64,000 bases of DNA. Source: an uncultured Actinomycetes bacterium (lineage in GTDB: Bacteria > Actinomycetota > Thermoleophilia > RBG-16-64-13). Position numbers and translations under genes: made by a program. Of this stretch, positions 23,630-52,080 are shown in pieces; position 1 is the stretch's first letter; the number at the start of each line of letters is the position of its first letter. The DNA lies in NCBI GenBank assembly GCA_963706025.1, contig CAVPLM010000017.1, positions 8,058 through 72,057 of the forward strand, written 5' to 3'. The notes beneath the pieces were generated by a model. It was not told the DNA's origin. It worked only from the letters and a program-made list of their open reading frames with translations, and made no database searches.

Positions 23630-23635
23630 TGCCTG

Positions 23636-26306: not shown

Positions 26307-26351
26307 TACCTGCGCCTGCTGGGCCGCAACGCTCTGGGCGCGCCCGGCCGG

Positions 26352-29815: not shown

Positions 29816-29869
29816 GGCGGGGTCCTGGAGACGACCCCGGGCATCTGATCGCCTACCCAACGGAGGAGA

Positions 29870-30703: not shown

Positions 30704-30755
30704 CTCCGGCCTCGGACAGTGGCATAGTGTACCAGCGGACGAAGGCGGAATAGAG

Positions 30756-30772
30756 ATTCCGCTAGTCGGAAT
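30756..30772. promoter_or_regulatory. Putative operator ATTCCG-N5-CGGAAT (copy 3, perfect)
   Basis: ATTCCG-CTAGT-CGGAAT just upstream of the paralog 4 RBS. Confidence 0.55.
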
Positions 30773-30811
30773 AGGGGAGTAGAAGAGAGCAAGCAGTACT
30801 AAGGAGGCACT

Positions 30812-33412: not shown

Positions 33413-34242
33413 TGGGCAAGGTCCTTGTCATCAACTATGACATCTGTAACGGCTGCTACAACTGCCAGGTGGCCTGCAAGGACGAGCACGTGGCCAACGA
33501 CTGGTCGCCTATCGCCAAGCCGCAGCCGGACACCGGCCAGTTCTGGAACAAGGTCTACGACAACGTCCGCGGCCAGGTACCCAAGGTCAAGGTGACTTAC
33601 GAGCACAGCATCTGCCAGCACTGCGACGAGGCTCCCTGCATCGAGGCCTGCAACGTGCACGCTATCTACAAGCGCGACGATGGGGCGGTCATCATCGACC
33701 CCGACAAATGCCGCGGCAACCAGATGTGCATCGCGGCCTGCCCGTACGAGAACGTGATCTACTTCAACGACATGCTCAACATCGCTCAGAAGTGCACCTT
33801 CTGCGCACACCTCCTGGATGACGGTTGGGCGGAGCCCCGTTGCGCGGATGCCTGCCCCACCGGTGCCTTCACGTTCGGCGAGGAGGACGATCCCAAGATC
33901 AAGGAGCTCATCGCCAAGGCGGAGCCGCTCAAGCCGGAACTGGAAGTCAAGCCGCGGGTGTACTACATCGGTCTGCCCAAGAAGTTCATCGCCGGGGCGC
34001 TGTTCGATCAGGAGGTCGACGAGTGCGCCGAAGGCGCTACCGTCAAGGCCACCAACACCGAGACAGGCGACAAGTACCAGGCCACGAGCGACAGCTACGG
34101 CGACTTCTGGCTGAACGGCCTGAAGAACGGCACCTACACCTTGCTGATCGAGAAGCCCGGGTACCTGACGCAGAAGTTCGGCCCTGTCGATGTCACTCAG
34201 AAGGACATGAACGTGGGCGACATCGCCATCTGGAAGGCGTAG
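33409..34242 (+). CDS. BthL-like Fe-S beta subunit (four Cys groups)
   Basis: CNGCYNCQVAC, CQHCDEAPCIEAC, CRGNQMCIAAC, CTFC...CADAC. Confidence 0.88.
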   Translation: MMGKVLVINYDICNGCYNCQVACKDEHVANDWSPIAKPQPDTGQFWNKVYDNVRGQVPKVKVTYEHSICQHCDEAPCIEACNVHAIYKRDDGAVIIDPDKCRGNQMCIAACPYENVIYFNDMLNIAQKCTFCAHLLDDGWAEPRCADACPTGAFTFGEEDDPKIKELIAKAEPLKPELEVKPRVYYIGLPKKFIAGALFDQEVDECAEGATVKATNTETGDKYQATSDSYGDFWLNGLKNGTYTLLIEKPGYLTQKFGPVDVTQKDMNVGDIAIWKA

Positions 34243-34292
34243 CCGCCGCTCGATCGACCTCGGGAGCGCTGTGTTAGACAGGATGACCGACT

Positions 34293-34322
34293 GGGGGCCC
34301 GCCTTCTAGGAGGCGGGCCCCC
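34293..34322 (+). terminator. Hairpin/terminator after the molybdoenzyme array
   Basis: GGGGGCCCGCCT...AGGCGGGCCCCC. Confidence 0.55.
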
Positions 34323-34478
34323 GCCGCTCTGTTGCGTGGTGCGTGGACTTGGCGAAGTGACTAGAATGTAAGTGCGCACTAAGTTACAGAAAGGGGGTTG
34401 GAGCAGGCTGGTTCGGTTAGGACTATGAGCGATTGCAGACGCGACGAGGAACGGGACTAGTCCTAGGAGGAGGGAACC

Positions 34479-35950
34479 ATGGATGACCGTGATAGAGACG
34501 TGAGCATCCGACAAGTAAGCCGCCGCGAGTTCCTGAAGATAGCAGGTGCCGCCGGCGCAGCCGTCGGCCTGGGCGCAGGACTTGGCGGCCTGGTGGCCGC
34601 ATGCGGCGAAGAAGAGACTACGACTACCACTGCGGCGCGCCACTACTACCACCGCGGGTGCGACCACGACCACCGCCGGAGCCACCACGACTACAGCGGG
34701 CGCGCCGGCGGCCGGCAGAGAGATCAAGATAGGCTTCGTGGCGCCCCTCACAGGCCCTCTGGCCAGCTTTGGGGTGGCCGACCGATACTGCCTGGAGCGC
34801 TGGGAGGAGTATGTCGTCGACGGGCTGGATTGCGGAGACGGCAAGACGCACCCGATCAAGTTCTACCTCCAAGGACAGCCAGTCCGATACCAACCGCGCA
34901 GCGCAGGTGGCCGGCGACCTCATCCTCAACGAGAAGATCGACATCATGATGGTCGCCTCCACTCCGGAGACGGTCAGCCCGGTGGCGGATCAGTGCGAGG
35001 CCGATGAGCATGCCCTGCTACAGCAACGATGCGCCGTGGCAGGCCTACTTCTTCGGTCGCGGCGCGAGCGTGGATACGCCCTTCAAGTGGACCTACCATC
35101 ATTTCTGGGGTCTCGAGGACATCATCGCCGTCTACTTGGCCGCCTGGGAGAAGTCGGGCAACGAATAAGATCGTCGGGGCGATGTGGCCGAACGACTCGG
35201 ACGGGAACGCGTTCTCCGATCCCAACACGGGTTTCCCGGCCGCCATCATGCCCGCTGGGCTACACGATAGTCGACCCGGGTCGGTATCAGAACGGCAGCG
35301 AGGACTTCACCGCTCAGATATCGCAGTTCAAGAACGAGGGATGCGAGATCATCACCGGGGTACCCATCCCCCCCGATTTCACCAACTTCTGGAAACAGGC
35401 CACGCAGCAGGGCTTCCAGCCTAAGGTTGGCAGCATCGCCAAGGCCTTGGACCTCCCTTCGGGCGTCGAGGCGCTGGGAGACGCCGGCAACAACTTCACG
35501 GTCGAGTGTCAGTGGACCCCGCGGATGCCGTTCAAGTCGTCACTCACCGGTGAGACCTGTCAGCAGTTTGCCGACGAGTTCGAGAAACGTGCCGGCATTC
35601 AGTGGGCCCAGTATCTGCTGCACTATGCCGTCTTCGAGGTGGTCGCGGATGCGCTCGGGCGGTGCGCGGATGTCGACGACAAAGAAGCCATCATCGAAGC
35701 GATCGGCACTACGAAGTTGGATACGATAGCGGGTCCGGTCGACTTCACCTCGCCGGTATGCGAAGGCACCATGCATCCGGTCAAGAACGTATACCGATCC
35801 CCGCTGGTGAGGGGCCAGTGGGTCAGGAGTGAGCGAGCAAAGTACAAGTACGAGTTCGTCGTAGTCGACAACACCAACTACCCGACGATCGAGGTCGATG
35901 CGCGAGCTCCTGCCGCTGGAGTACTGAACGCCGACCCGACCTTGAGATAG
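34479..35950 (+). CDS. Tat-lipoprotein ABC substrate-binding protein (Liv/PBP1 type) 1; several frameshifts, true end possibly 35927
   Basis: SRREFLKIAG...LVAAC, Thr-rich linker, IKIGFVAPLTGPLASFG, DSQSDTNRAAQVAGDLI, PPDFTNFWKQ. Confidence 0.8.
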
Positions 35951-36131
35951 GAGAGAGGTGCGACCCGCGGGTAGCCCGCGGGTCGCGGGTCATGGCCGAG
36001 GCTCGGTGCTCTGGGGATTTGGGCGTGTTCCAGTGAAAGGGGGCTTGGAAGGCTGATCTCGTCAGGAAAATGGCCCTGAAGAAGAGGGGCAGCGCGCGTG
36101 ACTACAATCACCACAGCCCAGGGAGGAATCA

Positions 36132-37634
36132 ATGGATGGCGGAACAGAAGAATTGAGCGCCCCTAGCGAAGACCGCGTCGACGAGCTTGAGCGCAACTGC
36201 GTCAGTCGCCGCGAGTTCCTCAAACTGGCCGGGATTGCCGGCGCTGCCATCGGCATGGGTGCCGGTCTTGGCGGAGCCGTGGCTGGGTGCGGCGGAGGAG
36301 GAAGAAACTACTACCACCGCGGGCGCCACGACGACGGTGGCGGGCGCCACGACGACTACGGCAGGCGCCACGACCACGACCAGCGCCGGAGCGGAGCTGG
36401 GTCGAGAGATCAAGGTGGGCTTCTCGTCTCCGGGGACGGGGATCTATGCGTCGTTCGGGGTGCCGGATGGCTGGTGCGTGGACAAGTGGAACGCGATCTT
36501 CAAGGACGGGCTTCTGTGCGGAGACGGCCTGGTGCATCCCATCACGATCATCGTCAAGGACAACCAGTCCGACTCGAACCGGGCCTCACAGGTTACTGGA
36601 GACCTCATCAACAATGACAAGGTGGACATCGTCATCTGCGACTCGACTCCCGATACTCGTCAACCCGGCATCCGACCAATGCGAAGCAGCCGGGAATGCC
36701 GTGCGTGTCCAATGACGCCCCCTGGCAGGCCTACTTCTTCGGGCGAGAACGGGGACCCCGAGGTAGGTTTCAAGTGGACATATCATCATGTTCTGGGGGC
36801 TCGATGAGATACATCGCCAACTTCCTCGACATGTGGGCGAAGATTCCGACACGAACCAGGTCGTCGGCGGTATGTGGCCAAATGATGCAGACGGGAACGC
36901 GATGGTAGATCCGGCATGGCTGACAGAGAGTTCGAGGAGCTCGGCAGGACTGGACCGATCATCGATCCCGGCGCCTATCCAGCTGGGAACTGAGGACTTC
37001 ACGGCCAGATGATCTCGCTCTTCAAGAACGAGGGGTCGAGATCATCACCGGCGTCATGCCTCCCCCGGACTTCACAAACTTCTGGAAGCAGGCTATACAG
37101 CAAGGTCTTCCAGCCTAAGGTCTTTCTCACCATGGCCAAGGCCCTGCTCTTTCCGCAGTCGGTCGAAGCTCTGGGTGAGATTGCCGCCAACTACGACAAC
37201 GCGAGTGCTGGTGGTCTCCATACCATCCCTTCAAGTCGTCGCTGACCGGCGAGACCACTGCCGAACTGGCCGCCGACTTCGAGAGCACGCGCCGGCACGC
37301 AATGGACCCAACCCATACTGCACTATGCGCTCATGGAGGTAGTCGCGGATGCGCTTGAAGCGCACGGCCGACGTTGACGACAAGGAGCAGATCTCGAGGG
37401 GGTGCGCGACTACCAAGATGGATACCATGGCCGGTCCTATCGATTTCACCGAGCCCGTCGATCCCATGGGACAACGCATCCGGTGCCCGAACGTCTACAA
37501 GACTCCGCAGGTCGGCTCCCAGTGGGTCAAGGGAACTGGAGAGTGGCTCGTTCGAGCTAGGCGATAGTGGCGAACCCGGATGGCACCGATGGTCCCGGTC
37601 CAGGCGGAAGTCCTGCCGATGCCGAAGATATTGA
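36132..37634 (+). CDS. Tat-lipoprotein ABC substrate-binding protein 2; heavily frameshifted
   Basis: SRREFLKLAG...VAGC, TTTAGA linker, DNQSDSNRASQVTGDLI, WPNDADGNA, AKALLFPQSVEALG. Confidence 0.75.
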
Positions 37635-37885
37635 AGCAGCGGCCCAGGCGGACGTTGCTGGTGTTGAAGTACTGCATGGCCAGGGCGGCTGCCCCAGGGC
37701 GGAATCGTCGTGACCGGATAGCTCCGAGTCACGAATCTGTGTGGACGAAGGCAGATCCAGCTTCTGCCGGTTATGAAAGGGCCGCCGAATGGGATCTCGG
37801 ATGAGGGAAGTCCAGCGACCGGGGCCGCGCCACTTCAAGGCCACGAACGTGCCCAGGGCCGCGCCGATTCGCGACCAGCGAAAGG

Positions 37886-38746
37886 GTGAGCATGGAAGGC
37901 TACTCTATCTTCAGTGAGACCATTGCCGATATGACCTGGCCTGCGGTCGAGGAGGCGGCGCGCCGGAAGGCTCTCATGCTTGTTCCCATCGCGGTGATCG
38001 AGCAACATGGACCGCATCTGCCGCTGGCCACAGACACCTACGGGGCGTATCTCCTAGTTGTCCACATCAGGGCCCGGCTGGCCGAGGCCGGGGTCGAGGC
38101 GCTCATCGCGCCTCCGTACTACTTCGGCATGAATCCGACGACGGCCATGTTCACGGGGTCACTGCACATCGATCGCGAGACTATGGTCAGCATGCTTACC
38201 CAGCTATTCCACAACTACAACCGCTGGGGTTTTCAACGACAATTCATCCTGAACCATCATGGCGATCCCGCCCACAACGACGCGATAATGGAGGCCATCC
38301 GTGCGGTACGGTCCCAGGGAGTCGACGCCGTTTACACGATGGGCGGTTTCGTCCAGCAATTCATCGAGGAGGGCTACGCCTCTGCTTTCCACAAGCCGTT
38401 GCCGCTCCCGGAATCCGCGCTCCTCAAGGCTCCCGAGTCCGAGGCGACCAGGCTGGCCCGTGAGCGGCTTGCCAAGTCGGTCCTCCACGTTCATGCCGAG
38501 GAGTTCGAGACCAGCATGATCATGCGCTGGTATCCGGATGTGCTCGATCCTCAGACCGAGGTCGGGAACCTCCCGCCGGTGCTGCCCACCCCGAAGGAGT
38601 TCGATCAGGCCATCCAAGCCGGCAAATGGAGAGAGCTTTCGCCGGCCGGCTATATCGGGGATCCATCAGTGGCGGCGGCGGAGACCGGAGAGATCTACGC
38701 GTTGGAGGCGGCCGACATCGCGCGCGCCATCGCAGCGCGGTTGTGA
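37886..38746 (+). CDS. Creatininase/cyclic-amide hydrolase family protein
   Basis: DMTWP, EQHGPHLPLATD, NHHGD, HAEEFETS, GYIGDP. Confidence 0.88.
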   Translation: MSMEGYSIFSETIADMTWPAVEEAARRKALMLVPIAVIEQHGPHLPLATDTYGAYLLVVHIRARLAEAGVEALIAPPYYFGMNPTTAMFTGSLHIDRETMVSMLTQLFHNYNRWGFQRQFILNHHGDPAHNDAIMEAIRAVRSQGVDAVYTMGGFVQQFIEEGYASAFHKPLPLPESALLKAPESEATRLARERLAKSVLHVHAEEFETSMIMRWYPDVLDPQTEVGNLPPVLPTPKEFDQAIQAGKWRELSPAGYIGDPSVAAAETGEIYALEAADIARAIAARL

Positions 38747-38833
38747 TGGCAGGGTTCGATCGAGATTCGCCTGTAAGGTAGGGGGAGAGCGGGACTAGGT
38801 GATCAGCGCAGTTGAAAAGAAAGGAGCGAACAG

Positions 38834-39262
38834 ATGAGCGTCAAGATCGAGCACATAGAGTGGCCAGACCGGCCGGATGTGATGATGCCCTATTCACCGG
38901 CCATCAAAGTCACGGGAGGGAGCCTGTTGTTCTTCGCGGGGGTGACGGCCGCTCCCGTCTATCACAGCCACCCCCACATTCCCGCGGAGTTCGACAACAT
39001 ACCCCCGGATATGGCCACCCAAGCCCGAATGACCATGGAGAATCTCAAGAAGTCGGTAGAAGCCGCCGGTGGCACCCTAGAGAACGTCGTGCACTGCAAG
39101 CGCTTCTTGACCAATCTCGACCTGCAGGACGATCTGAACAAAGTCTGGAACGAGTACATGGGCAAGTACAAGCCCACCTCCACCACCGTCCAGGTACAGC
39201 GACTGGCCACCGACCCTCGCTGTCTGGTGGAGATAGACGCCATCGCCGTGGTAGACGACTAG
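38834..39262 (+). CDS. Rid/YjgF-family protein
   Basis: PYSPAI, QARMTMENL...AAGG, LVEIDAIA. Confidence 0.88.
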   Translation: MSVKIEHIEWPDRPDVMMPYSPAIKVTGGSLLFFAGVTAAPVYHSHPHIPAEFDNIPPDMATQARMTMENLKKSVEAAGGTLENVVHCKRFLTNLDLQDDLNKVWNEYMGKYKPTSTTVQVQRLATDPRCLVEIDAIAVVDD

Positions 39263-39301
39263 GGGCGGCGGCTGCATCCACCCACGTCACAAGGAGTCGC
39301 C

Positions 39302-40167
39302 ATGGAGAGGAAGCCCAATTGGGCGGCGCAGACCTTTCTCATCCTTCATCCCGCTGCGGTGGGATGCCTTCTCGGAGCCCTGATTCTCGACCCGGGCGGC
39401 GAGACTCGGGTGTTCGTGATCGCCTGCGTCACCGTCGCCCTGATCTTCGCGGTGGTGGGGGCGATGGTCCCTGTCCTAGCCATCAAGAAGCCGCTCCGAT
39501 CGTATCGCTTCCTCGCCGGAGTCGGGCATTCCCCGCTCAGCCGCCAGGCGGCACTGGTGGGATTGTTCACGTTGCTGTTGCTGGTCTATTGGGTCCTGGT
39601 GCTCGCCGAGGTCAGCGCCCTATGGTTGGGTATCGTCACCGTGGCGGCCGGCGCGGCAGCCGTGCTGGCTGCCGGCCTGGTCTATCTGCTGGGGTCTCAG
39701 CCCGGCTGGCGCCATTGGTCGACTCCGCTGTTGCTCTTCGGTGATCTCTTGGCCCTGGGGGTGTCCACCGGCCTTGTGGTCGCCCTAGGGTGGCGAGACG
39801 TTCTGCTCGCCGGTTCGACCGGCGCCGTTGCCGCGCAGATCTTGGTGCTCGTGGGGGTGGTCGTCCTGGAAACCGGGATCTGGGGAAGGATCGGTCGTGT
39901 CGCCGGACGGGAGCCTCGGACGCAGGACCCGGCACTCGCCCAGGGCGGCCGAGGTTGGACGCCTCTTGCGAGCGCGGTGCTCGTGGCTGTGGCCGGCGTG
40001 CGGCGGCGGCCAGCTTCGCCTGGGAGTGGGCGATCATAGTCTGCTTCACCTGTCTGCTGGCGGCGCTGCTCGTTCATTGGCGAGCGTTCTTCGTCTCTGC
40101 TGCTCCCCATAGCTGGAGGGCCGAGGTGAACTGGTACGCGCCCACGCCTGTCGCCGGGAAGGAGTGA
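39302..40167 (+). CDS. DmsC/NrfD-like membrane anchor subunit (frameshift near 40005)
   Basis: Multiple TM helices, GVGHSPLSRQ (DmsC-like), VY...PGW; directly precedes the Mo subunit. Confidence 0.7.
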
Positions 40168-42825
40168 CGGCCATGACGGAGAGCAAACCGCAGACCCTGG
40201 TCAACCCTGCTCTCGCCGGCGGGCAGTGGAAGAGGGTCATGTGCAAGCTGTGCGGCAATAAGACCTGGTGCACGGCCCAAGCCTACGTGAAAGACGGGAT
40301 CATTCTCAGCGTGGCCGGCGATCCGGAGAACCCGATGAACGGCGAGACGCTCTGTGGCCGGGGCCAAGCGGCCATGATGAACGTCTACAACCCCTATCGG
40401 GTAAAGGCGCCCATGAAGCGCACCAATCCCAACAAAGGGCTCGACGAAGACCCCGGCTGGGTGGAGATAAGCTGGGACGAGGCCCTCGACACGGTGGCGG
40501 CAAAGATGCGGGAGATCGCCGAGCGCGGCGACCCTCGCCGGTTCGGCCACTGCTTCGGGTTCGCCGCCTGGGCCAACATCGTCTCGGACGAGGCCTTCTG
40601 CCGCGCCTTCGGCAGCCCGTACGACATACAGGGCAGGGGCCACCTGTGCCCGGTCCACATCGGGGCCTCCTTCGTCAACGGGACCTTCCTGGATAAGCAG
40701 GACGTGGAGTACGCGAACTACTTCCTCACCATCGGTGGTAGCTTGGGCCCCAACTCCGGCAGCGCCCACGGCATGCGGGCCGTGTCCCGGGCCATGGAAC
40801 GGGGCATGAAGCTGGTGGTCGTCGATCCGCGGATGAGCCCGGAGGCGGCCATGGCCCAGGAGTGGGTACCCATCCGGCCCGGGGGCGACCTGGCCTTCAC
40901 CCTCAGCATGCTCCACGTGATGCTCCACGAGATGCCGGTGACCGATCTGGATCTACGCTTCATCAAGGAACGGAGCAACCTGGTCTACCTCATCGGCGAG
41001 GACAAGCTGTACCTCACCGATCCGGAAACCGCCAAACCGCTCGTGTGGGATCCGGTGGACGATGGTGCGAAGACCTTCGACGATCCGACCATCAAGGACT
41101 ACGCGCTCGCCGGTTCTTACGGGATCGACGGGCGTGTAGGCACGCCGGCCTTCGCTCTTCTCAAGGAACGGATGGCGGAATACACGCCCGAATGGCAGGA
41201 GCAACACACCACGGTCCCCGCCGAGACCATCCGCCGCATCACCCGGGAGTTCGTGGACGCGGCCCAGGTCGGAGCCACCATCACTCTGGACGGTTTTGAG
41301 TTCCCCCTGCGCCCGGCCGTCATCAAGTCGGAGCGGGGTGCCTACTCCACCACCCATGGCGCCTATCAGCACTTCGCCGTCAAGATCGTGGCCGGCCTGG
41401 TGGGAGCCACCGACGTGCCCGGCGGCTTCCTGGGTTCGGAGCAAGGACCCGTGCTCAGCCCCGGACCGGACGGGGTGGTATCGCCCAAGCAGGAGGCCCA
41501 GCCGATTCCCTGGCAGCAGCCTCCTTCTCTGGACCTGCGGGAATTCTACCCCCACCGGCACACCGGCCCCTATCTAGTCTGGAAGACGGTGCTCGATCCA
41601 GAGAAATACGGGGTCGACCACAACCTCGACATGCTCATGGTCTACGGCAGCAATCCCATCCACTCGAACTGCACGCCCATGCGCGCCATCGAGGCGTTCA
41701 AGAAGATCCCGTTCATGGCGGTCGTCGCTTTGGTCTACGACGAGACCACCCAGTTCGCGGATATACTTCTGCCCGAGAGCACCATCCTTGAGCGGCATGC
41801 GCTCCTCGAGTACGGCGACCACGTCGTGCACGCGGCCGATGAGGCCATCCTGCGTACCCGTACCGTGCAGGTCACCAAGCCGGTCATCGACCCGGTCTGG
41901 AACACCCGCCAGGCTGACGACATGTACATAGAGATCGCCGAGCGGGCGGGATTCCTCTTTGGCGAAGGCGGACTGAACGCGGAGCTCAATCGGACCCTCA
42001 ACCTGTGCGACGAGCACAAGCTCGACCTGAACACCAAGTACCTGACTCCCGATCTGATCGACCGGATCACCCGCTGCCATTTCGGCGACGAGTACGGGAT
42101 GGACTACTTCGACGAGCACGCCCTGATCCCCGATCTCCTGCCCAAGGCCGAGGCCTACAACTTCTACTATTTCCCCTGGGGAAAAACCCGTCATCCGCTG
42201 TATCTGAACCAGTTCTACGCGAACGGTCAGGAGTTCAAGAGGAATCTGGCCGGCGCCGGTCTCGAAGCTCCTCCCGGATGGGACCCCGCTACCTACTGGG
42301 ATCACTGGGAGCCCATCCCGCGGTGGGTCGGACGCTGCGACGAAGCCTACGCGGAGGAATACGATCTCAGGGCCATGGTCTGGACCACGCCGCAGACCCG
42401 GATGTGCTCAGGCGACCAGATAGGCAATCCCTGGGTGCGGGAGCCGGTGGACGAGTTCGACCCTTACGATCTCGCCATCCTCATCAACAGCGAGACCGCC
42501 CGCAGGAAGGGTCTTAAAGATGGGGATCAAGTGAAGGTGGAGGCTTTCTGGGGCGGTACAGCTCAAGGCATGCTCAAGGTAACGGAATTGATCCACCCGG
42601 AGGCGCTCGGGTTTCCCCGGCCACCATGGCTTCAAGGGGCGCCTGCGCAACCCCATCACCTGGAAAGGACCCGATTTCAACGATCTCCTCTCCGATAGGG
42701 AGGGAGAGTTCGATCCCATCTCCTGCGCGACCGACATCAGTCCCCGGGTGCGCGTGGTGAAGCTGGGCGCCGATGGTGCGAGTGCCGCCCGGGCGAACCC
42801 CGAGGGTCAAGGAGGTGCGCCATGA
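40164..42825 (+). CDS. Mo-bisPGD oxidoreductase catalytic subunit with FS0, PadB/ArrA/PsrA-like (frameshift near 42615)
   Basis: CKLCGNKTWC...LCGRG FS0 motif, KRTNPNKG..EDPGWVEISWDEAL, GHLC putative Cys ligand, ADILLP; no Tat signal. Confidence 0.85.
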
Positions 42826-43475
42826 GATACGGCATGGTCATCGATCTCTCCAAGTGCTCTGGGTGTATGTCGTGCGACGTGGCCTGCAAGCGCGAGAACT
42901 TCACCCCTCCGGGCGTGCACTGGAGCAAGGTGCACATCTACGAGACCGGCCGGTATCCTCACTCCAAGCTGCGTTCGCTTCCGGACCACTGCATGCACTG
43001 CGAAGAGCCGGCCTGTGAGAAGGCCTGCCCCACCGGGGCCACCAGCCACCGGGCCGACGGCGTGGTGACCATCGACAACGATTGCTGTGTGGGCTGCGGC
43101 TACTGTGCCCTGGCCTGTCCCTACCAAGCCCGGGTGCTGAACCGTGGCGAACCTAGACCTTACCATGAGCCTCATGGTTTTACGCCGTTCGAGGAGATAG
43201 GCTACTTCCAGCGCTTGGGACCGGTGGAGCACGGCAAGGGGGTCATTGAGAAGTGCACCTTCTGTGTCCACAGGCTCGACCAGGGAGGAGAGCCGTCCTG
43301 CGTGAGCACCTGCCCCGCAGGCGCCCGGACCTTCGGCGACCTCGACGACCCCGAGAGCGAGGTGGCACGGCTGGCGGCCGGCGGCGCGAAGGGCCGCCTG
43401 GACGAGCACGGTACCAAGCCCAAGGTCTTGTATCTCTTCCTGGACGAGCATCTGGGCAAGGGGATGGCTGAATGA
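42822..43475 (+). CDS. 4Fe-4S dicluster electron-transfer subunit (DmsB/NrfC-like)
   Basis: CSGCMSCDVAC, CMHCEEPACEKAC, CVGCGYCALAC, CTFC...CVSTC. Confidence 0.92.
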   Translation: MRYGMVIDLSKCSGCMSCDVACKRENFTPPGVHWSKVHIYETGRYPHSKLRSLPDHCMHCEEPACEKACPTGATSHRADGVVTIDNDCCVGCGYCALACPYQARVLNRGEPRPYHEPHGFTPFEEIGYFQRLGPVEHGKGVIEKCTFCVHRLDQGGEPSCVSTCPAGARTFGDLDDPESEVARLAAGGAKGRLDEHGTKPKVLYLFLDEHLGKGMAE

Positions 43476-44116
43476 CGGCGTTCGAAGAGATCGCGGAGGC
43501 CCTGGATCGGTTGGACGAGGACACGGTCGAGCTCGTTCGCGAGGCTCTGGCTCGGGGTGAAGACCCGCTCGAGATCATCGAACAGGGCATCGTGGTTGGC
43601 ATCCGCACCTGTGGGGACAAGCTGGCCGCCTACGAATACGGGGTGCCGGAGCTCCTCGTGGCCGGTGAGCTGGCTCAGGAATGCATCAAAGTGGTGAGGC
43701 CCCACCTGGACCCCAGCAAAGCGCCGGCCAAGGCCACAGTCGTTATAGCCACCGTCCAGGGCGACATACACGAATTGGGCAAGAACCTCGTTGCCCTCTT
43801 GCTGGAGCTTGCGGGTTTCACGATCGTCGATCTCGGGGTGGATGTGGCTCCGATGGCCATCATCGACAAAGCGGAGGAGACGGGCGCGACTGTCATAGCT
43901 CTCTCGTCTCTGATGGTGACCACGATGCCGGCCCAGCAGGAAGTCATCACCTATCTCAGGGATACAGGGAAGCGAGAGAGGTTCCGAGTCATCGTCGGCG
44001 GGGCGCCTACCTCGCAATCCTGGGCGAATTCGATCGGTGCTGACGGCTGGGCGGCGGATGCCCAAGCTGCCGTCGCGCTGGTCGAAGGCCTGTGCGGATC
44101 CGGTGATCGGCAGTGA
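43472..44116 (+). CDS. Methyltransferase cognate corrinoid protein
   Basis: GDIHELGKNLV (DxHxxG), DLGVDV, LSSLMVTTM, VGGAP. Confidence 0.92.
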   Translation: MTAFEEIAEALDRLDEDTVELVREALARGEDPLEIIEQGIVVGIRTCGDKLAAYEYGVPELLVAGELAQECIKVVRPHLDPSKAPAKATVVIATVQGDIHELGKNLVALLLELAGFTIVDLGVDVAPMAIIDKAEETGATVIALSSLMVTTMPAQQEVITYLRDTGKRERFRVIVGGAPTSQSWANSIGADGWAADAQAAVALVEGLCGSGDRQ

Positions 44117-45492
44117 TCGGGACCCGGGACATATTGGAGAGATCTCTCACCGGACCGGTGATGAAAGAGCGCGATTTCGACCTAGCCTTTGCCAAGAAAC
44201 TCCGCCAACTCTACGCCGACGTGACCGGTTCTCGGGGGATGCCCGACCCCGACCGGGTAGTTCCCGACGACGAGACCGCCGACCTGGTGTTCGCGGCAGC
44301 GGTGGAGTTGCTGGCCGAAGTGGGTCTATATAACAAGGACAGCCAGCGTGTCGTACAGGTCACTCGGGAGGAGATCCTGGAGATCGCGTCAAGCCGCCTC
44401 TCCGAGATCGAGCTGGGCACTGGGGCCGAGCGCGTCACTGTACGGGAAAGAAAGCCGGGCTCCACTTTTCCCCCGGTCATAGTGACCGGCCCGGTGGGAG
44501 GGCCCTTCACCGAGGAGTGCTATCTGCCCTGCCACCTCTCCTACGCCCAGGAACCCACCTGCCAGGGCCTGCTCGGCGGCGTTCTCCTGAGTTGGCAGGG
44601 AATCGAGAACATGGCCGGCCGGCCCAACGAGCTCATCGTGACCGCTGCGGAAGGCGAGCTCATCGCCCGGGCGGCAGAGGCTGCGGGGAAGCCCGGTCTT
44701 TACCTGGGGCCCTTCCCGCCGGGCGGGATCTCCCCGGAGGCGATCTTCTGCAACCACTCGGCGGCGGGACTCCCGCCGGCACGGACTCAGATCCCCATCC
44801 AGCTCATGCCGGAGCTGAAGCTCAGTTGGAGCAAGATCGATCTGGCCCTCTATTGTCAGGCCCATGGGGTCCACCCGTGGACCGACATCGTCTCGGTGAT
44901 CGGGGCCTTCTGCCGGAACGCCCTGGAGAGCTCCATCTCTCAGACGGCTGGGGTGCTGGGCGCCTGGACCTTTACCGGGGGATCCACCGCTTCGGTCTGG
45001 AGCACCGACATCGAGGGTCTCTGTACCCGGAAGCGGAACCTGTGGGCCAACTGCGCGACCACGCGGGCACTGGAGCGTCACGTGGGAAACCCGGTCTTCC
45101 TGCTCGGGTACGCTTCGGCCGGACCGTGCACCGAGATGGCCTTGCTCGAGACGGCGGCCTATTCCGTCGCCTACACGGCCAGTGGAGGCGAATTGATATG
45201 GGGGGGATCCACCTGCAACGGCGTGGATACGAATGCCTACGCGGGCCTGCAGGGCCGGATGGTGGGGGAGGCGGCTGAAGGCGCGTGCGGTCTCTCGGTC
45301 GACCGAGCCAATCAGATCATCGAAAGGCTTTTCGCCGCTTTCGAGGCCGACCTCCCCGTCGCGCCCAAAGGGCTCACGTTCGACCGGTGCTACGACCTAG
45401 ATTCGATCCGGCCCACGCGTCAGTATGCTCAGCTATACCAGAGGACGAAAGACGCGCTGAGCGCGGACTTTGGGCTGAGTTTCACCCTTTAG
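44113..45492 (+). CDS. mtmB: Monomethylamine:corrinoid methyltransferase (MtmB) family protein lacking pyrrolysine
   Basis: SYAQEP, AGKPG, ELK, AGPCTEMALLE, ASGGE, GRMVGE, APKGLTFDRCYD align to recalled MtmB; no in-frame TAG in the 459-aa ORF. Confidence 0.85.
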   Translation: MIGTRDILERSLTGPVMKERDFDLAFAKKLRQLYADVTGSRGMPDPDRVVPDDETADLVFAAAVELLAEVGLYNKDSQRVVQVTREEILEIASSRLSEIELGTGAERVTVRERKPGSTFPPVIVTGPVGGPFTEECYLPCHLSYAQEPTCQGLLGGVLLSWQGIENMAGRPNELIVTAAEGELIARAAEAAGKPGLYLGPFPPGGISPEAIFCNHSAAGLPPARTQIPIQLMPELKLSWSKIDLALYCQAHGVHPWTDIVSVIGAFCRNALESSISQTAGVLGAWTFTGGSTASVWSTDIEGLCTRKRNLWANCATTRALERHVGNPVFLLGYASAGPCTEMALLETAAYSVAYTASGGELIWGGSTCNGVDTNAYAGLQGRMVGEAAEGACGLSVDRANQIIERLFAAFEADLPVAPKGLTFDRCYDLDSIRPTRQYAQLYQRTKDALSADFGLSFTL

Positions 45493-45732
45493 TGGTGGGG
45501 CCTGGGGGTTTTTTTCGTAGGCTTGGTGTATATTCAGCCACGCACACGAATGGCAGCCGGTGACTTTCGGCCGAGCGACTCATCGCATCGGTTGACCCTG
45601 GAGTACGGCGGTCGTGTGCGAACATGGGGGAGCGAGCAGCGCTGAGGGGGGTGATCCGAAACCACGGGGATCCATTTCTAACTCGAGCTGTCGTCTTCGT
45701 CTAGTGGCAATCTCTGCAAATAGGAGGGGAAC

Positions 45733-47186
45733 ATGTCTGACAAAGAGGAGAACGGTCTTACTGAGAAAAGCGTGAGTCGGCGCGAGTTTCTCAAGATCGC
45801 AGGTATCGCGGGAGCAGCCGTAGGCGTCGGGGCCGGCCTCGGTGGGCTGGTGGCCGCGTGCGGCGAAGAAGAAGAGACCACCACCACGGCGGGCGCGACC
45901 ACCACCACGGCGGGCGCGACCACCACCACGGCGGGCGCAACCACCACCGTGAGCACCGGGGCCGAAGTGGGCCGGGAGGTCAAGATCGGCTTCGTCACCC
46001 CGCTCACCGGCCCGCTGGCTTCGTTCGGCGTTCCCGACAAGTACTGCGTGGAGCGGGCCCAGGAAGCCATCGGTGACGGCGTCGTCTGTGGCGACGGCAT
46101 GAAGCACCCGGTCACCATCATCACCATGGACAGCCAGTCCGACTCCAACCGGGCCGCGCAGGTCACCGGCGACCTGATCAACAACAACAAGGTCGACATG
46201 GTGACCGCCGCGTCCACGCCGGACACGGTCGCGCCCGGTGGCGGACCAGTGCGAGGCCAACGGGATGCCCTGCATCACCAACGACTGCCCGTGGCAATCG
46301 TATATCGCCACCGGCAGCGGCGGGGACATCACCGCCGTCTTCAAGTGGACCTACCACACCTTCTGGGGCCTCGAGGACGTGCAGGCCAACTTCCTCGACA
46401 TGTGGAGCCAGGTGCCCAACAACAAGGTCGTGGGGGCCATGTTCCCCAACGACGCCGACGGCAACGCCTGGCTGCCGGGATGGGCGCCGGTCTGGGAGCC
46501 GGCCGGCTATACGGCGGTCATTCCCAGCCAGTTCCAGAACCTGACGGAGGACTTCACCGCCCAGATCACCGAGTTCAAGAATGCGGGCTGCGAGATCGGC
46601 GTGGGTGTTTTCCTCCCGCCGGACTTCACCAACTTCTGGAAGCAACGGGCCCAGCAGGGCTGGAATCCCAAGATCGGCACTTATGCCAAGGCCCTGCTCT
46701 TCCCGCAGTCCATCGAGGCGCTGGGTGATCTAGGGACTGGGCTGACCACTGAAGTCTGGTGGACCCCGGCCCACCCGTTCACCTCTTCGCTGCTTGGTGA
46801 GACCTGCCAGCAGTTCGCCGACGAGTTCACCAAGCGTACAACGCCAGCAGTGGACCCAGCCGCTGCTGCACTTCATCGTCTTCGAGATGGCGGTCGACAC
46901 CCTCCAGCGGGCGACCAGCGTTGACGACAAGGAAGCCATCCTGGCTGCTATCAAGACCACCAAGCTGGACACTATCGGCGGTCCCGTCGACTTCACAGCG
47001 CCGGTGATCGGTGCCACCCCGCCCTTCCAGGTGGGTCCGTGCCACATCGTCGAGAACGTCTACAAGACCCCGTTGGTCGGTGGACAGTGGCGTAAGGGCA
47101 CCACGTGGCCGTACGAGCTGACCATCTGCAGCAACGCTGCCGGCCCGATGATCCCGGTGCAAGACAAGGTGCAGTCGCTGGTCTAG
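45733..47186 (+). CDS. Tat-lipoprotein ABC substrate-binding protein 3 (frameshifts near 46235 and 46840)
   Basis: SRREFLKIAG...LVAAC, TTTTAGA x3, KIGFVTPLTGPLASFG, PPDFTNFWKQ. Confidence 0.85.
45877..45948 (+). repeat. 21-nt tandem repeat encoding the TTTTAGA linker
   Basis: ACCACCACCACGGCGGGCGCR x3 plus a partial copy. Confidence 0.85.
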
Positions 47187-47220
47187 GCCTCACAGATCAG
47201 AGGTTCGGTCTCGGCTTGCA

Positions 47221-47264
47221 GAAGGGGCCGCGACACGCGGGCGATCGCGTGTCGCGGCCCCTTC
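47221..47264 (+). terminator. 19-bp perfect hairpin between the SBP and ABC ATPase genes (mRNA stabiliser or partial terminator)
   Basis: GAAGGGGCCGCGACACGCG-GGCGAT-CGCGTGTCGCGGCCCCTTC. Confidence 0.7.
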
Positions 47265-47428
47265 GCTGGCCGGGTCCGAAGTCGCGCTGGGCGTGTTTCT
47301 TGACCTCGGACCGCGCAGTGTGACATCCTGTTACGTTGTGCGTCAGAGTCTTCTCCGGTCGGACCGGCGCTCAGTCTAATCTAAGAGGATCAAGGGGGAG
47401 TGGGGGATTCGCATGGAGGTGATTCCAC

Positions 47429-48154
47429 TTGACGGTAGCGCTTGAAACCCAAGGCCTTCGGAAGTCTTTCGGCGGGGTCTTGGTGATCGACGACCTGAGC
47501 ATCAGCGTGGACCAAGGGGAGGCTCTCGGCATCGTCGGTCCCAACGGGGCAGGCAAGACCACTTGGTTCAACCTGATCACCGGCGCAGTGAACGAAGACG
47601 CCGGCAAGGTGATCTTCGAGGGCAGGGACATCACCGATCTCTCTCGGCACGAACGGTGCCGCATCGGCTTGGGCCGCACCTTCCAGATTCCGAGGCCCTT
47701 CACGGGCATGACCGTCTTCGAGAATGTCCTGGTGGGTGCCACCCACGGCCGCAAGATGGCGGCCCGGGCTTCTTACGCCCATTGCGTGGATATTCTGGAG
47801 TGGACCGGCCTGCACAAGAAGGTGAACGTTCTCGCCGGGTCGCTTAGCCTGCTCGATCGCAAACGCTTGGAGCTGGCCCGGGCTCTGGCCACCGATCCCA
47901 GTTTGCTGCTTCTGGACGAGATCGCCGGCGGCCTCACCCAGGTCGAGGTCGAAGAACTGATCGAAGAGATCAAGAAGCTCAGGACCAGGGGCGTCACCAT
48001 TGTCTGGATCGAGCACATCGTTCACGCTCTCCTGGCTGTGGTCGATCGCATCACCGTCATCCAGTTCGGCCGCAAGCTGTGCGAGGGAGACCCTCACGAG
48101 GTCATGAACAGCCAGGAAGTCCAGGCCTGCTACATGGGAGGGACGCCGGCATGA
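47429..48154 (+). CDS. Branched-chain-type ABC ATPase (LivG-like)
   Basis: GPNGAGKTT, RTFQIPRPF, LLLDEIAGGL, WIEH. Confidence 0.92.
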   Translation: MTVALETQGLRKSFGGVLVIDDLSISVDQGEALGIVGPNGAGKTTWFNLITGAVNEDAGKVIFEGRDITDLSRHERCRIGLGRTFQIPRPFTGMTVFENVLVGATHGRKMAARASYAHCVDILEWTGLHKKVNVLAGSLSLLDRKRLELARALATDPSLLLLDEIAGGLTQVEVEELIEEIKKLRTRGVTIVWIEHIVHALLAVVDRITVIQFGRKLCEGDPHEVMNSQEVQACYMGGTPA

Positions 48155-48849
48155 GTCTGCTCGAGATCGACAACGCCAGCGTCTTCTACGAGGACTTCCA
48201 GGCTCTCTACGACCTCTCCCTCAAGGTGGAAGAAGGTGAGATATTCGCCTGCATCGGCGCCAACGGGGCAGGCAAGTCCACCCTGCTCAGGACCATCTCC
48301 GGCGTGCTCGTCCCCCGTATGGGACGCATCCTCTTCGATGGGCAGTCCATCGATCATATGCCCCCCCACAAGCGGGTGGAGCTGGGTATCTCCATGGTGC
48401 CGGAAGGTCGCCGGGTGTTCCCCAGCCTGAGCGTGCACGAGAACCTGCAGATCGGTGCCTGGCGTAGCCGCAAGGGTCCCTGGAGCACGGATGCCGTCTA
48501 TGACATGTTCCCCCTCCTACAGCCCCTCAGGAAGCGTCAGGCCTCCGGTCTTTCCGGCGGCGAGCAGCAGGCTCTGGCGATCGGGCGCTCGCTCATGAGC
48601 AATCCCAGGCTCATCCTGATGGACGAGGTCTCGTTGGGTCTGGCTCCGGTGGTCATCAAACGGATCTACGACGCCTTCCCGAAGCTCCTCAGTTCTGGCT
48701 GTACCATCCTCGTCGTCGAGCAGGACGTCCAGCACGTGCTCACAGTGGCCAATCACGTGGCCTGCTTTCTTGAGGGTCGGATCGCCCTTGAGGGTGAACC
48801 CAAGGATCTGACCACCGACCAGATAACCGCGGCCTACTTCGGAGTGTAG
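48151..48849 (+). CDS. Branched-chain-type ABC ATPase (LivF-like)
   Basis: GANGAGKST, VPEGRRVF, LSGGEQQ, DEVSLGLAP. Confidence 0.92.
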   Translation: MSLLEIDNASVFYEDFQALYDLSLKVEEGEIFACIGANGAGKSTLLRTISGVLVPRMGRILFDGQSIDHMPPHKRVELGISMVPEGRRVFPSLSVHENLQIGAWRSRKGPWSTDAVYDMFPLLQPLRKRQASGLSGGEQQALAIGRSLMSNPRLILMDEVSLGLAPVVIKRIYDAFPKLLSSGCTILVVEQDVQHVLTVANHVACFLEGRIALEGEPKDLTTDQITAAYFGV

Positions 48850-48851
48850 AT

Positions 48852-49724
48852 ATGGACTGGATCAACGCAGCTGTCCAAGGCATCCTCCTGGGTGGCCTCT
48901 ATGCTCTGTTTGCCACGGGCTTGGCCCTCGTCTTTGGGACGATGCGCCTGGTCAACCTGGCTCACGGTGACCTGACGGTCCTGCCCGCGTACGTAGCGCT
49001 GATGCTCGTGAACGCGTTTCGCTTCAACCCGTTCTACTCCATCCCGATCACCATGGTGGTCATGTTCGTCGTCGGCTACTTGCTCCAGCGGGGCCTTCTT
49101 AACCTTATCGTAGGCAAGGGGGACGTAGCCGGGGTGATCGTGACCTTCGGTCTCTCGATCGTGATCCAGAACGCCTTGTTGCTGGCTTTCACGGCCAACT
49201 CCCAGGGGCTCGACGCCGGCACGGTCGAGAACTTGAGCATCAAGGTCAACGACCGGCTGGCCATCGGCTGGTTGCCGCTGATCATCTTCCTCATGTCCCT
49301 GGTGGTCATCACCGGTCTGCAGATGTTCCTGAGCCGGACCAAGATGGGGCGCGGCTTCCGTGCCATATCGGACGATACCGATGCCGCCCGGCTCATGGGC
49401 ATCAACACCAAGCACGTGTGGGCGATCGCCATGGGCGTGGCGCTCGGCATCGTTGCGATCGGCGGGGTGATGATGGGCATCCGCACCACCTTCGATCCTT
49501 TGCTCGGTACCCAACGCCTGATCTACGCGTTTGAGGCCGTCATCATCGGCGGCATGGGATCGGGATGGGGGACCCTTTTGGGTGGTGTGATTCTGGGGTT
49601 ATCTCAGACCTTGGGCGCACAGGCCTTCGGCTCGGCCTGGTCCATCCTGGTCGGGCACGTGGTCTTTGTGGCCATCCTGGCGTTTAGACCACAAGGCCTC
49701 CTCGCGAAGACGGTGACGACATGA
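48852..49724 (+). CDS. ABC permease (LivH-like)
   Basis: GLALVFGTMRLVNLAHGD, GRGFRA...MGIN, IIGGMGS. Confidence 0.92.
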   Translation: MDWINAAVQGILLGGLYALFATGLALVFGTMRLVNLAHGDLTVLPAYVALMLVNAFRFNPFYSIPITMVVMFVVGYLLQRGLLNLIVGKGDVAGVIVTFGLSIVIQNALLLAFTANSQGLDAGTVENLSIKVNDRLAIGWLPLIIFLMSLVVITGLQMFLSRTKMGRGFRAISDDTDAARLMGINTKHVWAIAMGVALGIVAIGGVMMGIRTTFDPLLGTQRLIYAFEAVIIGGMGSGWGTLLGGVILGLSQTLGAQAFGSAWSILVGHVVFVAILAFRPQGLLAKTVTT

Positions 49725-50797: not shown

Positions 50798-50827
50798 ACC
50801 GCATTGCCACAGACTGATCGCGTGCCC

Positions 50828-50853
50828 GGGAGGCCGCCGCAAGGCGGCCTCCC
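50828..50853 (+). terminator. GC hairpin after the ABC operon
   Basis: GGGAGGCCGCC-GCAA-GGCGGCCTCCC. Confidence 0.55.
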
Positions 50854-51086
50854 GATCGTGGTTGATGTCAGACCGAGTCTGTATACTGCGGCGCGCTGTT
50901 TCGAGCCCACCTGCGGACCAACCGCAAAACACTCGGTCGAGCCGCGCACACTGCAGCACAAACGGCCGGATGCAGGGAACGGACACGGTGGCTGAAGGTT
51001 CCGCATGTCAGGACCAGACCCAGCGCGGTTCGTCTCGTCGGTAGGCTGCGAAGCGACCCCGGGGGCCCGAAGGGAAGGGGGTAGGG

Positions 51087-51956: not shown

Positions 51957-52080
51957 CGGACGCTTCGGCCCTTTCTCTCATGCGCAATGCGGGTCGAGAG
52001 TATGGTTTAATACTCGAGGGTGAGTTGTGGGTGTTGCTGGGTTTTGCCGGGGTGTGAGGGCGATAAGGAGGAATCGACTG

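Follow-up and report, generated by a model that had tools for sequence, protein, structure and literature searches.

The window analysed here is a stretch of 64,000 nucleotides from the genome of an uncultured sediment actinobacterium of the class Thermoleophilia. At 43472–45492 it holds a corrinoid protein gene followed by a gene for a homologue of the methyltransferase MtmB in which pyrrolysine (Pyl) is absent. We estimate with a probability of about 0.85 that the two genes encode a working, Pyl-independent pair of methyltransferase I (MT1) and corrinoid protein, which acts on an imported compound other than monomethylamine. A functional MT1 rather than a relic is indicated by the strong constraint within its clade, the confident MtmB fold and the DxHxxG motif kept in the corrinoid partner. 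Monomethylamine is disfavoured by the glycine (Gly199) that stands in place of Pyl and, in the host genome, by a search that found no tRNA-Pyl, a PylS score below cut-off and the lack of a PylD match. All coordinates are those of the window, and the genes described lie on the forward strand unless otherwise stated.

The pyrrolysine column and the corrinoid partner

The MtmB homologue (44113–45492; 459 aa, GTG start) matched the Pfam family PF05369 with an E-value of 2.9e-78 and 264 bits against a cut-off of 25, covering profile positions 5–446 of 450; it matched no model in the NCBIfam search. An earlier note on this DNA had claimed that the gene has no amber codon and that AGKPGLYLGP (44683–44712, residues 191–200) occupies the Pyl site, and both claims were borne out. 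The open reading frame (ORF) comprises 459 open codons without a TAG, and the motif aligns with AGRPGMGV-Pyl-GP of Methanosarcina barkeri MtmB. An alignment with HMMER to the PDB entry 1L2Q (E 1e-56) placed the Pyl position on Gly199, followed by an inserted Pro. In MAFFT, 152 family members were aligned, 12 of them TAG-bearing genes of the same class, and the Pyl column again fell on Gly199, the codon of which reads GGG in the DNA (44707–44709). Glycine fills this column in 49 of the 140 non-Pyl rows of the MAFFT alignment. The local motif reads GLYLGP here as opposed to GMGL-Pyl-G in the TAG-bearing homologues, and five relatives carry the identical AGKPGLYLGP motif. Contigs of four public sequencing runs from three studies were also compared with the window over 39200–45500. 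These runs differ from the window at 44682, 44700, 44709 and 44730, all of which are synonymous third positions, and their glycine codon is GGA; the TAG that polished reads might have restored, according to the earlier note, was found in none of them.

The sequence constraint on the clade to which this protein belongs is strong, with about 150 invariant columns among 12 sequences that share 57–100% identity. The AlphaFold2 (AF2) model has a predicted local distance difference test score (pLDDT) of 93.3, and Foldseek matched it to M. barkeri MtmB (1L2Q) with an E-value of 5e-40, a template modelling (TM) score of 0.93 and a root-mean-square deviation of 1.8 Å. In a set of 5.8 billion proteins, 22 of the 44 matches lay at 57–93% identity and the next one at 37%; the nearest homologues beyond the clade are at most 40% identical. 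A library clustered at 50% contained 630 MtmB-family representatives at E ≤ 0.001 and 102 at E ≤ 1e-30, most of the 150 MtmB-family matches listed being full length, and the clade is represented there by a single entry, P0019. A FastTree phylogeny was calculated from 152 rows, namely 15 of the clade, 12 with Pyl and 125 other matches of 400–500 aa taken from P0023–P0150, leaving out P0151–P0193 and rows outside 400–500 aa. The clade formed a single branch (support 100), the Pyl genes formed a separate branch (support 100), and the clade was nested in a 52-row group without Pyl genes (support 97). The clade is small, highly conserved and placed well within the Pyl-free portion of the MtmB family.

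Among the residues that never vary within the clade and that the Pyl group does not share are Cys140, Cys304, His254, Tyr197, Arg224, Arg268, Trp256 and Trp296. Cys314 is also clade-invariant; its Pyl-group counterpart is Gly in the MAFFT alignment, but HMMER pairs it with a Cys of 1L2Q. Arg224 and Arg268 could hold a carboxylate. The clade retains Glu234, Lys236 and Tyr333, and Asp258 provides an acid where the Pyl group has Glu. These positions are reported to neighbour Pyl in the crystal structure of 2002.

The genome holding the window (G000; 3.66 Mb, 92% complete, 7% contaminated) was checked for the Pyl machinery, as the earlier note had proposed. No tRNA with a CUA anticodon was found among its 54 tRNAs, the best PylS score was 28 bits against a cut-off of 178, and the PylD profile gave no match; pylB and pylC were not searched for. 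The MttB profile (PF06253) also had no match in the genome. PylS was above its cut-off in none of the four other genomes that hold the clade. As a control, G010, a genome of the same family as the host, gave a PylS match of 279 bits, a tRNA-Pyl adjoining pylS and an in-frame TAG in mtmB, the ORF of which is open once the TAG is read through. Among 401 sampled genomes of the class, 76 have an MtmB match at E ≤ 1e-20, 15 have a single in-frame TAG within the match, and five, all in family f1, hold the clade. These observations bear on whether the enzyme still uses monomethylamine without Pyl, which we regard as extremely unlikely. MtqB, another non-Pyl MtmB, was reported to demethylate monomethylamine to a small extent (PMC13044021). 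However, the glycine and the different local motif replace Pyl here, the context is catabolic for larger molecules, and family-mates that use methylamine retain TAG, pylS and tRNA-Pyl.

Two side observations concern MtmB genes elsewhere. Another MtmB gene of this clade is cut off by the start of contig C27 of G000 (G000:C27:1-606); it encodes a protein of the type found in relative L014 and has TAA in place of a Tyr of the others; it probably comes from a second strain binned into the genome (contamination 7%). In the control genome (L070, G010:C12:42000–56234), a corrinoid gene lies beside the TAG-bearing mtmB, pylS and tRNA-Pyl (CUA). Further mtmB genes with an in-frame TAG (G-M-G-L-TAG-G) occur in Thermoleophilia at L033–L037, L045, L046, L049, L051–L053 and L055, and some genomes with TAG-bearing mtmB belong to the host's own family. 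Pyl decoding seems established in Thermoleophilia; a literature search for 'pyrrolysine' and 'Thermoleophilia' together gave an incidental mention only.

A corrinoid protein and its MT1 form a textbook pair, and in all 10 clade loci whose sequence extends upstream the corrinoid gene adjoins the MtmB homologue. The corrinoid protein of the window (43472–44116; 214 aa) contains B12-binding and B12-binding_2 domains, and its translation shows the DxHxxG motif as D-I-H-E-L-G. Its best NCBIfam models were MtgC, pyl_corrinoid and MtbC, all below cut-off; the E-values against glycine-betaine and methylamine corrinoid models ranged from 1.8e-49 to 1.9e-42, compared with 2.6e-30 against MtaC. The check for methyltransferase II (MT2) and RamA that the earlier note had asked for yielded candidates in the genome. 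A RACo/RamA-type activator (292 bits) lies on contig C5 in a cluster of URO-D, corrinoid, URO-D and RACo genes, the genome has eight URO-D matches, and a Pterin_bind methyltransferase adjoins a URO-D gene on contig C3. The operon is presumably paired with such trans-encoded MT2 and activator proteins. Acetyl-CoA synthase (CdhC) was not found in the genome, so the methyl group is more likely to be oxidised or assimilated than turned into acetate. In the C5 region (L057, G000:C5:1019500–1039400), an encapsulin gene (Linocin_M18 with DUF5661) adjoins the URO-D/corrinoid/URO-D/RACo cluster, and polyphosphate kinase and CYTH/CHAD genes lie upstream.

Coupling to an anchored molybdenum enzyme

The pair closes a run of seven head-to-tail genes on the forward strand (37886–45492), assigned by Pfam to a creatininase-family protein, a Rid protein, a DmsC anchor, a molybdenum (Mo) subunit, an iron-sulfur (Fe-S) subunit, the corrinoid protein and the MtmB homologue. 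None of the seven reached a named NCBIfam equivalog. The last four junctions overlap or almost touch. The stop codon of the anchor (TGA, 40165–40167) overlaps a GTG at 40164, the likelier start of the Mo gene being the ATG at 40173, 5 nt further. As read from the DNA, ATGA overlaps join the Mo gene to the Fe-S gene (42822–42825) and the Fe-S gene to the corrinoid gene (43472–43475), and a GTGA overlap joins the corrinoid gene to the MtmB gene (44113–44116). The intergenic gaps are 87 nt between creatininase and Rid and 39 nt between Rid and the anchor. The overlapping stop and start codons from anchor to MtmB and the close spacing behind the creatininase and Rid genes, both described in the earlier note, were thus confirmed, with the qualification that the anchor/Mo and Mo/Fe-S overlaps are present only after reading through single-base indels of this assembly. 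The co-orientation and coupling of the MtmB homologue with a Mo oxidoreductase, a creatininase-family hydrolase and Rid is likewise supported. A sigma-70 promoter scan of 34000–52000 returned no promoter, and an intrinsic-terminator scan of the same interval returned 16 terminator-like sites, which do not set the bounds of the operon since every one lies within coding sequence. Rfam at gathering thresholds gave no match in 28000–52000.

The earlier note did not mention that the anchor and Mo genes, the order of which holds, are each broken by a single-base indel in this assembly. The anchor gene dmsC (39302–40167; PF04976, E 7e-9) shifts frame near 39998, where a base is missing, and is a single ORF of about 290 aa in relatives L013, L014 and L015. 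The Mo gene (40164–42825) has an extra G near 42609, reading GGG where the same three relatives have GG, and its C-terminus, ...GFPGHHGFKGRLRNPITW..., continues in the +1 frame. In the four other runs, the extra Mo-gene base is absent at 42608/42609 without exception. Runs X1 and X4 have one more base at 39998/39999, and the other two show no difference there, their cover being thin or absent in that bin. The Mo gene is also uninterrupted in L017, a metagenome contig that is 98–99% identical. Indels further split the binding-protein genes (34769–37750; 45733–47186) and polA (55054–57792; frames 1, 2, 1).

With at least four locus genes split in the window, a decaying operon could be considered, in which the indels in the dmsC, Mo and binding-protein genes would be real and the locus non-functional here. 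This is very unlikely: the contigs of the other runs, the uninterrupted reading of L017 and of L013–L015, and the split polA lead us to regard the indels as assembly errors, and the MtmB and corrinoid genes themselves are intact.

The Mo subunit is a catalytic subunit of the molybdenum bis(pyranopterin guanine dinucleotide) (Mo-bisPGD) type, ArrA/PsrA branch, with Pfam molybdopterin oxidoreductase, Fe4S4 and dinucleotide-binding domains. Its closest PDB entries are ArrA 6CZ7 (E 2e-48) and PsrA 2VPW (E 1e-38). The N-terminus carries a C-x2-C-x5-C motif, and the Cys in line with the Mo-ligand Cys of ArrA is retained. The scores remained below the equivalog cut-offs for PhsA (199 against 694 bits), ArrA (187 against 1600) and dmsA_ynfE (129 against 778). 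The Fe-S subunit (42822–43475) is a four-cluster protein of the DmsB/ArrB/DsrO-like kind (4Fe-4S dicluster, Fer4_11 and related families) that scored 187 bits with ArrB and 170 bits with DsrO, both below cut-off. Together with the DmsC anchor, the molybdopterin domains, the Fe4S4 Cys motif, the Mo-ligand Cys and the Fe-S subunit complete the signature of a three-subunit Mo-bisPGD enzyme. The N-terminus of the Mo subunit, MTESKPQTLVNPALAGGQWKRVMCKLCG, has no RR motif or Tat signal, nor have those of L013, L014 and L015, and the Fe-S subunit has no signal peptide here or in three relatives. The lack of a Tat signal should place the complex on the cytoplasmic face of the anchor. For the membrane-anchored Mo oxidoreductase of the earlier note, this predicted cytoplasmic orientation is a correction. 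When the Mo subunit was searched against 401 Actinomycetota genomes, nothing closer than paralogues of at most 37% identity came up, in four other genomes and once on C5 of G000, and these offered no informative context outside the lineage.

As judged from sequence, the Mo enzyme could work in either direction, oxidising or reducing. Were it a reductase, it might convert dimethyl sulfoxide, a methylated oxyanion of arsenic or selenium, or an N-oxide to a reduced form, from which the MtmB pair would then take the methyl group. Its closest solved relatives, ArrA and PsrA, are respiratory reductases, the Cys in the place of the Mo ligand of ArrA is kept here, and its genes are translationally coupled to the corrinoid-MtmB pair. 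A kindred idea appears in PMC10418091, in which other corrinoid methyltransferase clusters are suggested to use methyl-sulfur or methyl-selenium compounds; MtmB, molybdenum, DMSO and non-pyrrolysine are not mentioned in the version searched. We nevertheless judge this scheme quite improbable, given the missing Tat signal, the scores far under the ArrA and PhsA equivalog cut-offs and the absence of the Mo enzyme from the clade loci L019/L020 and L016. It also leaves the creatininase, Rid and importer genes unexplained.

Neighbourhood and candidate substrates

The creatininase-family metal hydrolase (37886–38746; 286 aa) matched PF02633 with an E-value of 3e-49 and 168 bits, and scored below the equivalogs MftE (88.6 of 172 bits), creatininase (TIGR04448; 68.6 of 235) and IolN (54.4 of 245). 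The Rid (YjgF/L-PSP) protein (38834–39262; 142 aa) matched PF01042 (Ribonuc_L-PSP; E 3e-21, 76 bits) and reached 61 bits against the cut-off of 106 for TIGR00004. Downstream of the MtmB gene, Pfam identified an indel-split lipoprotein binding protein of the Liv type (Peripla_BP_6; 45733–47186) and an ABC importer (47429–50797), which consists of two ATPases (47429–48154, 48079–48849) and two permeases (48852–49724, 49721–50797) of the families ABC_tran, BCA_ABC_TP_C and BPD_transp_2. The importer is kept 3′ of the MtmB homologue in L013, L014, L015 and L019. Intact orthologues of the binding protein in L013, L015 and L022 have about 490–500 aa, and the consensus has a Tat-like signal followed by a Cys. 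An AF2 model of this protein from a 6-row alignment had a pLDDT of 53, which was too poor for a structure search. Its best PDB relatives by sequence search are 4EY3/4EYG/4EYK, 3SG0, 4DQD and 3TX6; these are presumably aromatic-acid binders of R. palustris. A literature search for these entries returned unrelated papers only. On the other side, two fragmented Peripla_BP_6 genes lie at approximately 34300–37750 (Pfam matches at 34769–35950 and 36187–36807), with orthologues in L013 and L014.

The genes around the pair are arranged in three architectures. In architecture A, which the window shares with L013, L014 and L015 and in part with L017 and L025 (MtmB identity 84–98%), the genes run dmsC, Mo, Fe-S, corrinoid, MtmB, binding protein and ABC importer. 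Translational coupling from the Mo enzyme through corrinoid to MtmB is found in all six of these loci. Creatininase and Rid precede architecture A in the window, L013 and L014. In L014, an adenine-deaminase-like amidohydrolase (TIGR01178, 370 bits against a cut-off of 472.5) lies between them, and in L015 a DAO-type amine oxidase stands directly 5′ of dmsC at the contig end. Architecture B is that of L019/L020 (74% MtmB identity; 640-kb contigs), in which orthologues of 30812–33412 (91%) and 33409–34242 (88%) stand 210 nt ahead of the corrinoid gene, and MtmB, two binding-protein genes and the importer known from architecture A come next. Architecture C is that of L016 (78%). In L021 (67%) and L023 (57%) the corrinoid gene is kept and the contigs are short. 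The corrinoid protein is thus the invariant partner, the importer is frequent, and some Mo enzyme usually lies near. Creatininase, Rid and the anchored Mo enzyme do not accompany the pair across the whole clade, the conservation for which the earlier note had asked; they are missing in L019/L020 and upstream of L016, and their linkage to the pair is specific to the lineage of the window.

Two further sets of genes were noted in these comparisons. An inositol-type module (PFK, split transketolase and an IolN equivalog of 320 bits) lies 3′ of the importer in L015 (13238–17486) and L019 (19170–21360) and is absent from the window; the IolN equivalog of L015, a creatininase-family protein, was considered as a member of the system and rejected, as it adjoins transketolase and PFK. 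Genome G318 (L061, L062, L063) has four distant non-Pyl MtmB paralogues, two of them in tandem, beside an FAD oxidoreductase, short-chain dehydrogenases/reductases (SDRs), MoxR/VWA and an MFS transporter, and their contexts have nothing in common with this operon. L062 also encodes (1992–3740) a 582-aa protein with an MtrA-like domain (PF04208), unusual for a bacterium.

An aliphatic quaternary-amine demethylase of the MtqB/MtgB kind is the next candidate to weigh; it would act on choline, tetramethylammonium or betaine, and the Mo enzyme and hydrolases would merely be co-located. Quaternary-amine demethylation is the sole demonstrated chemistry of a non-Pyl MtmB (PMC13044021), and the top NCBIfam model of the corrinoid protein, MtgC, is glycine-betaine-specific. 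However, the clade lies in the 52-row non-Pyl group (support 97) with its nearest outside homologues at 40% identity or less, and in six loci the pair is joined by 4-nt overlaps to the genes of the Mo enzyme and its Fe-S subunit. Betaine importers, moreover, are usually of the OpuA or BCCT type and not of the Liv type. We consider this reading improbable.

Our leading, and still tentative, proposal is that the substrate is an N-methylated, cationic or heteroaromatic nitrogen compound. It is favoured by the precedent of MtqB and the non-Pyl MttB enzymes, by the nitrogen-chemistry neighbours and by the betaine/methylamine type of the corrinoid protein. Four nitrogen-chemistry families cluster with architecture A, namely creatininase, Rid, the adenine-deaminase-like and the DAO-like proteins. 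The substrate would be a positively charged or heteroaromatic nitrogen compound that carries a carboxylate, for example a trigonelline-like N-methylpyridinium, or a methylated purine or pyridine, and the Liv-type ABC system would bring it in. The MtmB homologue and the corrinoid protein would take the methyl group off, yielding methyl-Co(III), and the trans-encoded MT2 would pass it on, most likely to tetrahydrofolate, with the RACo/RamA-type activator of contig C5 holding the cofactor as Co(I). The demethylated ring would then be oxidised (hydroxylated) by the cytoplasm-facing, anchored Mo-bisPGD enzyme, which would deliver electrons to the quinone pool; the creatininase-family hydrolase would open the cyclic amide, and Rid would deaminate the resulting enamine or imine. 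The gene identities, the fold, the lack of Pyl, the operon structure and the trans-encoded MT2 and activator candidates are observed; which reaction follows which, the direction in which the Mo enzyme works and the substrate are what we infer from them.

Several points weigh against this proposal. The MT2 and activator candidates all lie outside the operon. Members of the creatininase family are not limited to amides, and IolN, found in L015, cleaves a C–C bond. The known Mo hydroxylases of N-heterocycles belong to the xanthine-oxidase family and not to the Mo-bisPGD type. L019/L020 are without creatininase, Rid and DmsCAB and have the pyrogallol-hydroxytransferase-like pair directly 5′ instead. 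In L016, the pair is preceded by a divergent gene and followed by genes for an MBL-fold hydrolase, a GMC/FAD oxidoreductase and an AhtL-like protein. The guess at the substrate draws on the gene neighbours of five close, non-independent genomes, and the window itself is a polyphenol island without other nitrogen-compound genes.

The polyphenol genes of the island suggest another substrate. At 12922–17072, BKACE, SDR, 3-hydroxyacyl-CoA-dehydrogenase-like and cyclase-family proteins are encoded, the four families that make up the anaerobic phloroglucinol pathway (PMC10470551). Next, at 17360–20817, come a pyrogallol hydroxytransferase that matches PDB 4V4C over the full length with 1297 bits, and its small subunit. 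As an observation in its own right, 12922–20817 forms a complete module from pyrogallol through phloroglucinol to acetoacetate, made up of BKACE (TAL), a cupin, SDR (PGR), the 3-hydroxyacyl-CoA-dehydrogenase-like protein (TfD), the cyclase-family protein (DPGC) and the hydroxytransferase pair. Four further AhtL-like paralogues occupy 21023–33412. The last belongs to a pyrogallol-hydroxytransferase-like pair of large subunit (a paralogue; 475 bits to PDB 4V4C) and Fe-S small subunit at 30812–34242, with the families AhtL-like_1st, Molybdopterin, Fer4_11 and CarboxypepD_reg. IclR-type regulators stand on both sides of the locus, one at 29870–30703, 5′ of this pair, and one at 51087–51956, 3′ of the importer, the latter being kept in L013 and L014. 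Over the whole genome, 24 AhtL-like matches exceed the cut-off, a striking expansion of such Mo enzymes; they mark the organism as a hydroxybenzene specialist and at the same time weaken any argument from proximity. Two long ORFs on the reverse strand, at 8076–10472 (798 aa) and 3523–5766 (747 aa), have high third-position GC and no Pfam match.

Given this setting, the pair may instead be a methoxy-aromatic O-demethylase, a possibility that we regard as unlikely overall and yet as one of two leading candidates, as both substrate ideas of the earlier note, an N-methyl heterocycle and methoxy-aromatics upstream of pyrogallol, remain. An imported syringate-, methylgallate- or methoxyhydroquinone-type compound would feed the pyrogallol/phloroglucinol pathway; the hydroxytransferase-like Mo enzymes would reshuffle the polyhydroxybenzene to phloroglucinol, which the pathway 25 kb upstream would degrade. 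The Pelobacter-type hydroxytransferase, the four phloroglucinol-pathway families, the four AhtL-like paralogues and the flanking IclR regulators all agree with this. Each of the three architectures has an AhtL-like gene close to the corrinoid-MtmB pair, directly 5′ in L019/L020 and 2.7 kb 3′ in L016. With 24 AhtL-like matches, however, one would fall within 10 kb by chance in about 1 in 8 cases, and architectures A and B share ancestry. The PDB relatives of the binding protein, presumably of the aromatic-acid type, point the same way. The Zn site of MtaB activates O-methyl donors, and the clade-specific Cys140, Cys304, Cys314, His141 and His254 could form such a site. Known anaerobic O-demethylase MT1s have a URO-D-like fold, which counts against an O-demethylase here; CdmB has that fold (PMC13222342). 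The genome has a URO-D-type set on C5, and O-demethylation leaves the creatininase, Rid, adenine-deaminase-like and DAO-like neighbours unexplained.

Relation to known systems and meaning

Comparison with characterised systems shows what the pair shares with known enzymes and what sets it apart. The family, fold, adjoining corrinoid protein, E-L-K motif, Tyr333 and the acid at Asp258 are shared with M. barkeri MtmB (1L2Q, 1NTH, 1TV2). In contrast to that enzyme, the homologue has no UAG or Pyl, carries Gly199 and a one-residue insertion, is about 28% identical, has its clade's own invariant Cys/His/Arg/Trp set and belongs to a non-methanogen in which no Pyl machinery was found. The nearest functional precedent was described recently. 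The earlier note knew of no assigned function for a Pyl-free MtmB, a statement now outdated: according to PMC13044021 (2026), MtqB is the first non-Pyl MtmB with a demonstrated function, acting on tetramethylammonium and choline, and the function of the other non-Pyl MtmBs in a tree of 1,061 sequences is elusive. The same text describes MtqB and the non-Pyl MttB enzymes as acting on quaternary amines, for which activation by Pyl is not needed. MtqB/MtqC of Methanococcoides methylutens Q3c resembles the present pair by description and not by sequence: MtqB is an MtmB homologue without Pyl, the gene of its corrinoid protein lies beside its own, and the MT2 is supplied in trans (PMC13044021). That system is archaeal and methanogenic and feeds coenzyme M, whereas the present pair belongs to a Thermoleophilia host and occurs coupled with a Mo enzyme and with an importer of the Liv type.

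Pyl-family MT1 proteins without Pyl that accept another methyl donor are also known from the non-Pyl MttB superfamily, for example MtgB with glycine betaine. That superfamily, however, is PF06253, and Foldseek reported 2QNE, 9YCE and 4YYC as remote TIM-barrel relatives with TM scores of only about 0.5. The non-Pyl MtmB-superfamily protein of 'Ca. Formimonas warabiya' DCMF is Pyl-free and about 30% identical to MtmB, and it was reported as the most induced protein on dichloromethane (PMC9768040); compared by description only, it differs in its Firmicute host and its context. The three-component O-demethylases, including CdmBCA, follow the same scheme of MT1, corrinoid protein, MT2 and reductive activator, and such a set lies on C5, but the MT1 here has the MtmB fold and not that of URO-D, and the MT2 and activator are outside the operon. 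For the Mo complex, ArrAB, PsrABC and DmsABC share the N-terminal Cys cluster motif, the Mo-ligand Cys, the four-cluster Fe-S subunit and the DmsC-type anchor, and differ in that the present complex has no Tat signal, scores far under the equivalog cut-offs and shares its operon with a corrinoid methyltransferase pair. We take PadBCD, the phenylacetyl-CoA:acceptor oxidoreductase, as a working analogue. A literature search gave no paper in which an MtmB homologue is connected with a Mo enzyme, with O-demethylation or with polyphenol pathways.

The genes described here represent an uncharacterised clade of a known kind of enzyme in a new and informative operon context, from a sediment actinobacterium. 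Non-Pyl MtmB homologues are numerous, and one has an assigned function. In this clade, the importer, the two kinds of Mo enzyme, the ring-opening hydrolases and the complete pyrogallol/phloroglucinol pathway narrow the substrate to a small testable set. It is possible, though doubtful, that a Pyl-independent methyltransferase of the MtmB fold and the cytoplasm-facing, quinone-linked Mo-bisPGD enzyme to which it is translationally coupled give Actinomycetota that are neither methanogenic nor acetogenic an anaerobic route, so far undescribed, into plant compounds of the methylated aromatic or N-heteroaromatic kind. Such a route would give the MtmB family its first non-aliphatic substrate. If the substrate were O-methylated, the enzyme would be the first O-demethylase with the MtmB fold, possibly with a clade-specific Cys/His metal site replacing Pyl. 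If confirmed, corrinoid-dependent demethylation in anoxic sediments and soils would extend to Thermoleophilia, and the removal of methyl groups would be tied to the turnover of polyphenols or N-heterocycles, which would bear on the preservation of carbon in anoxic soils.

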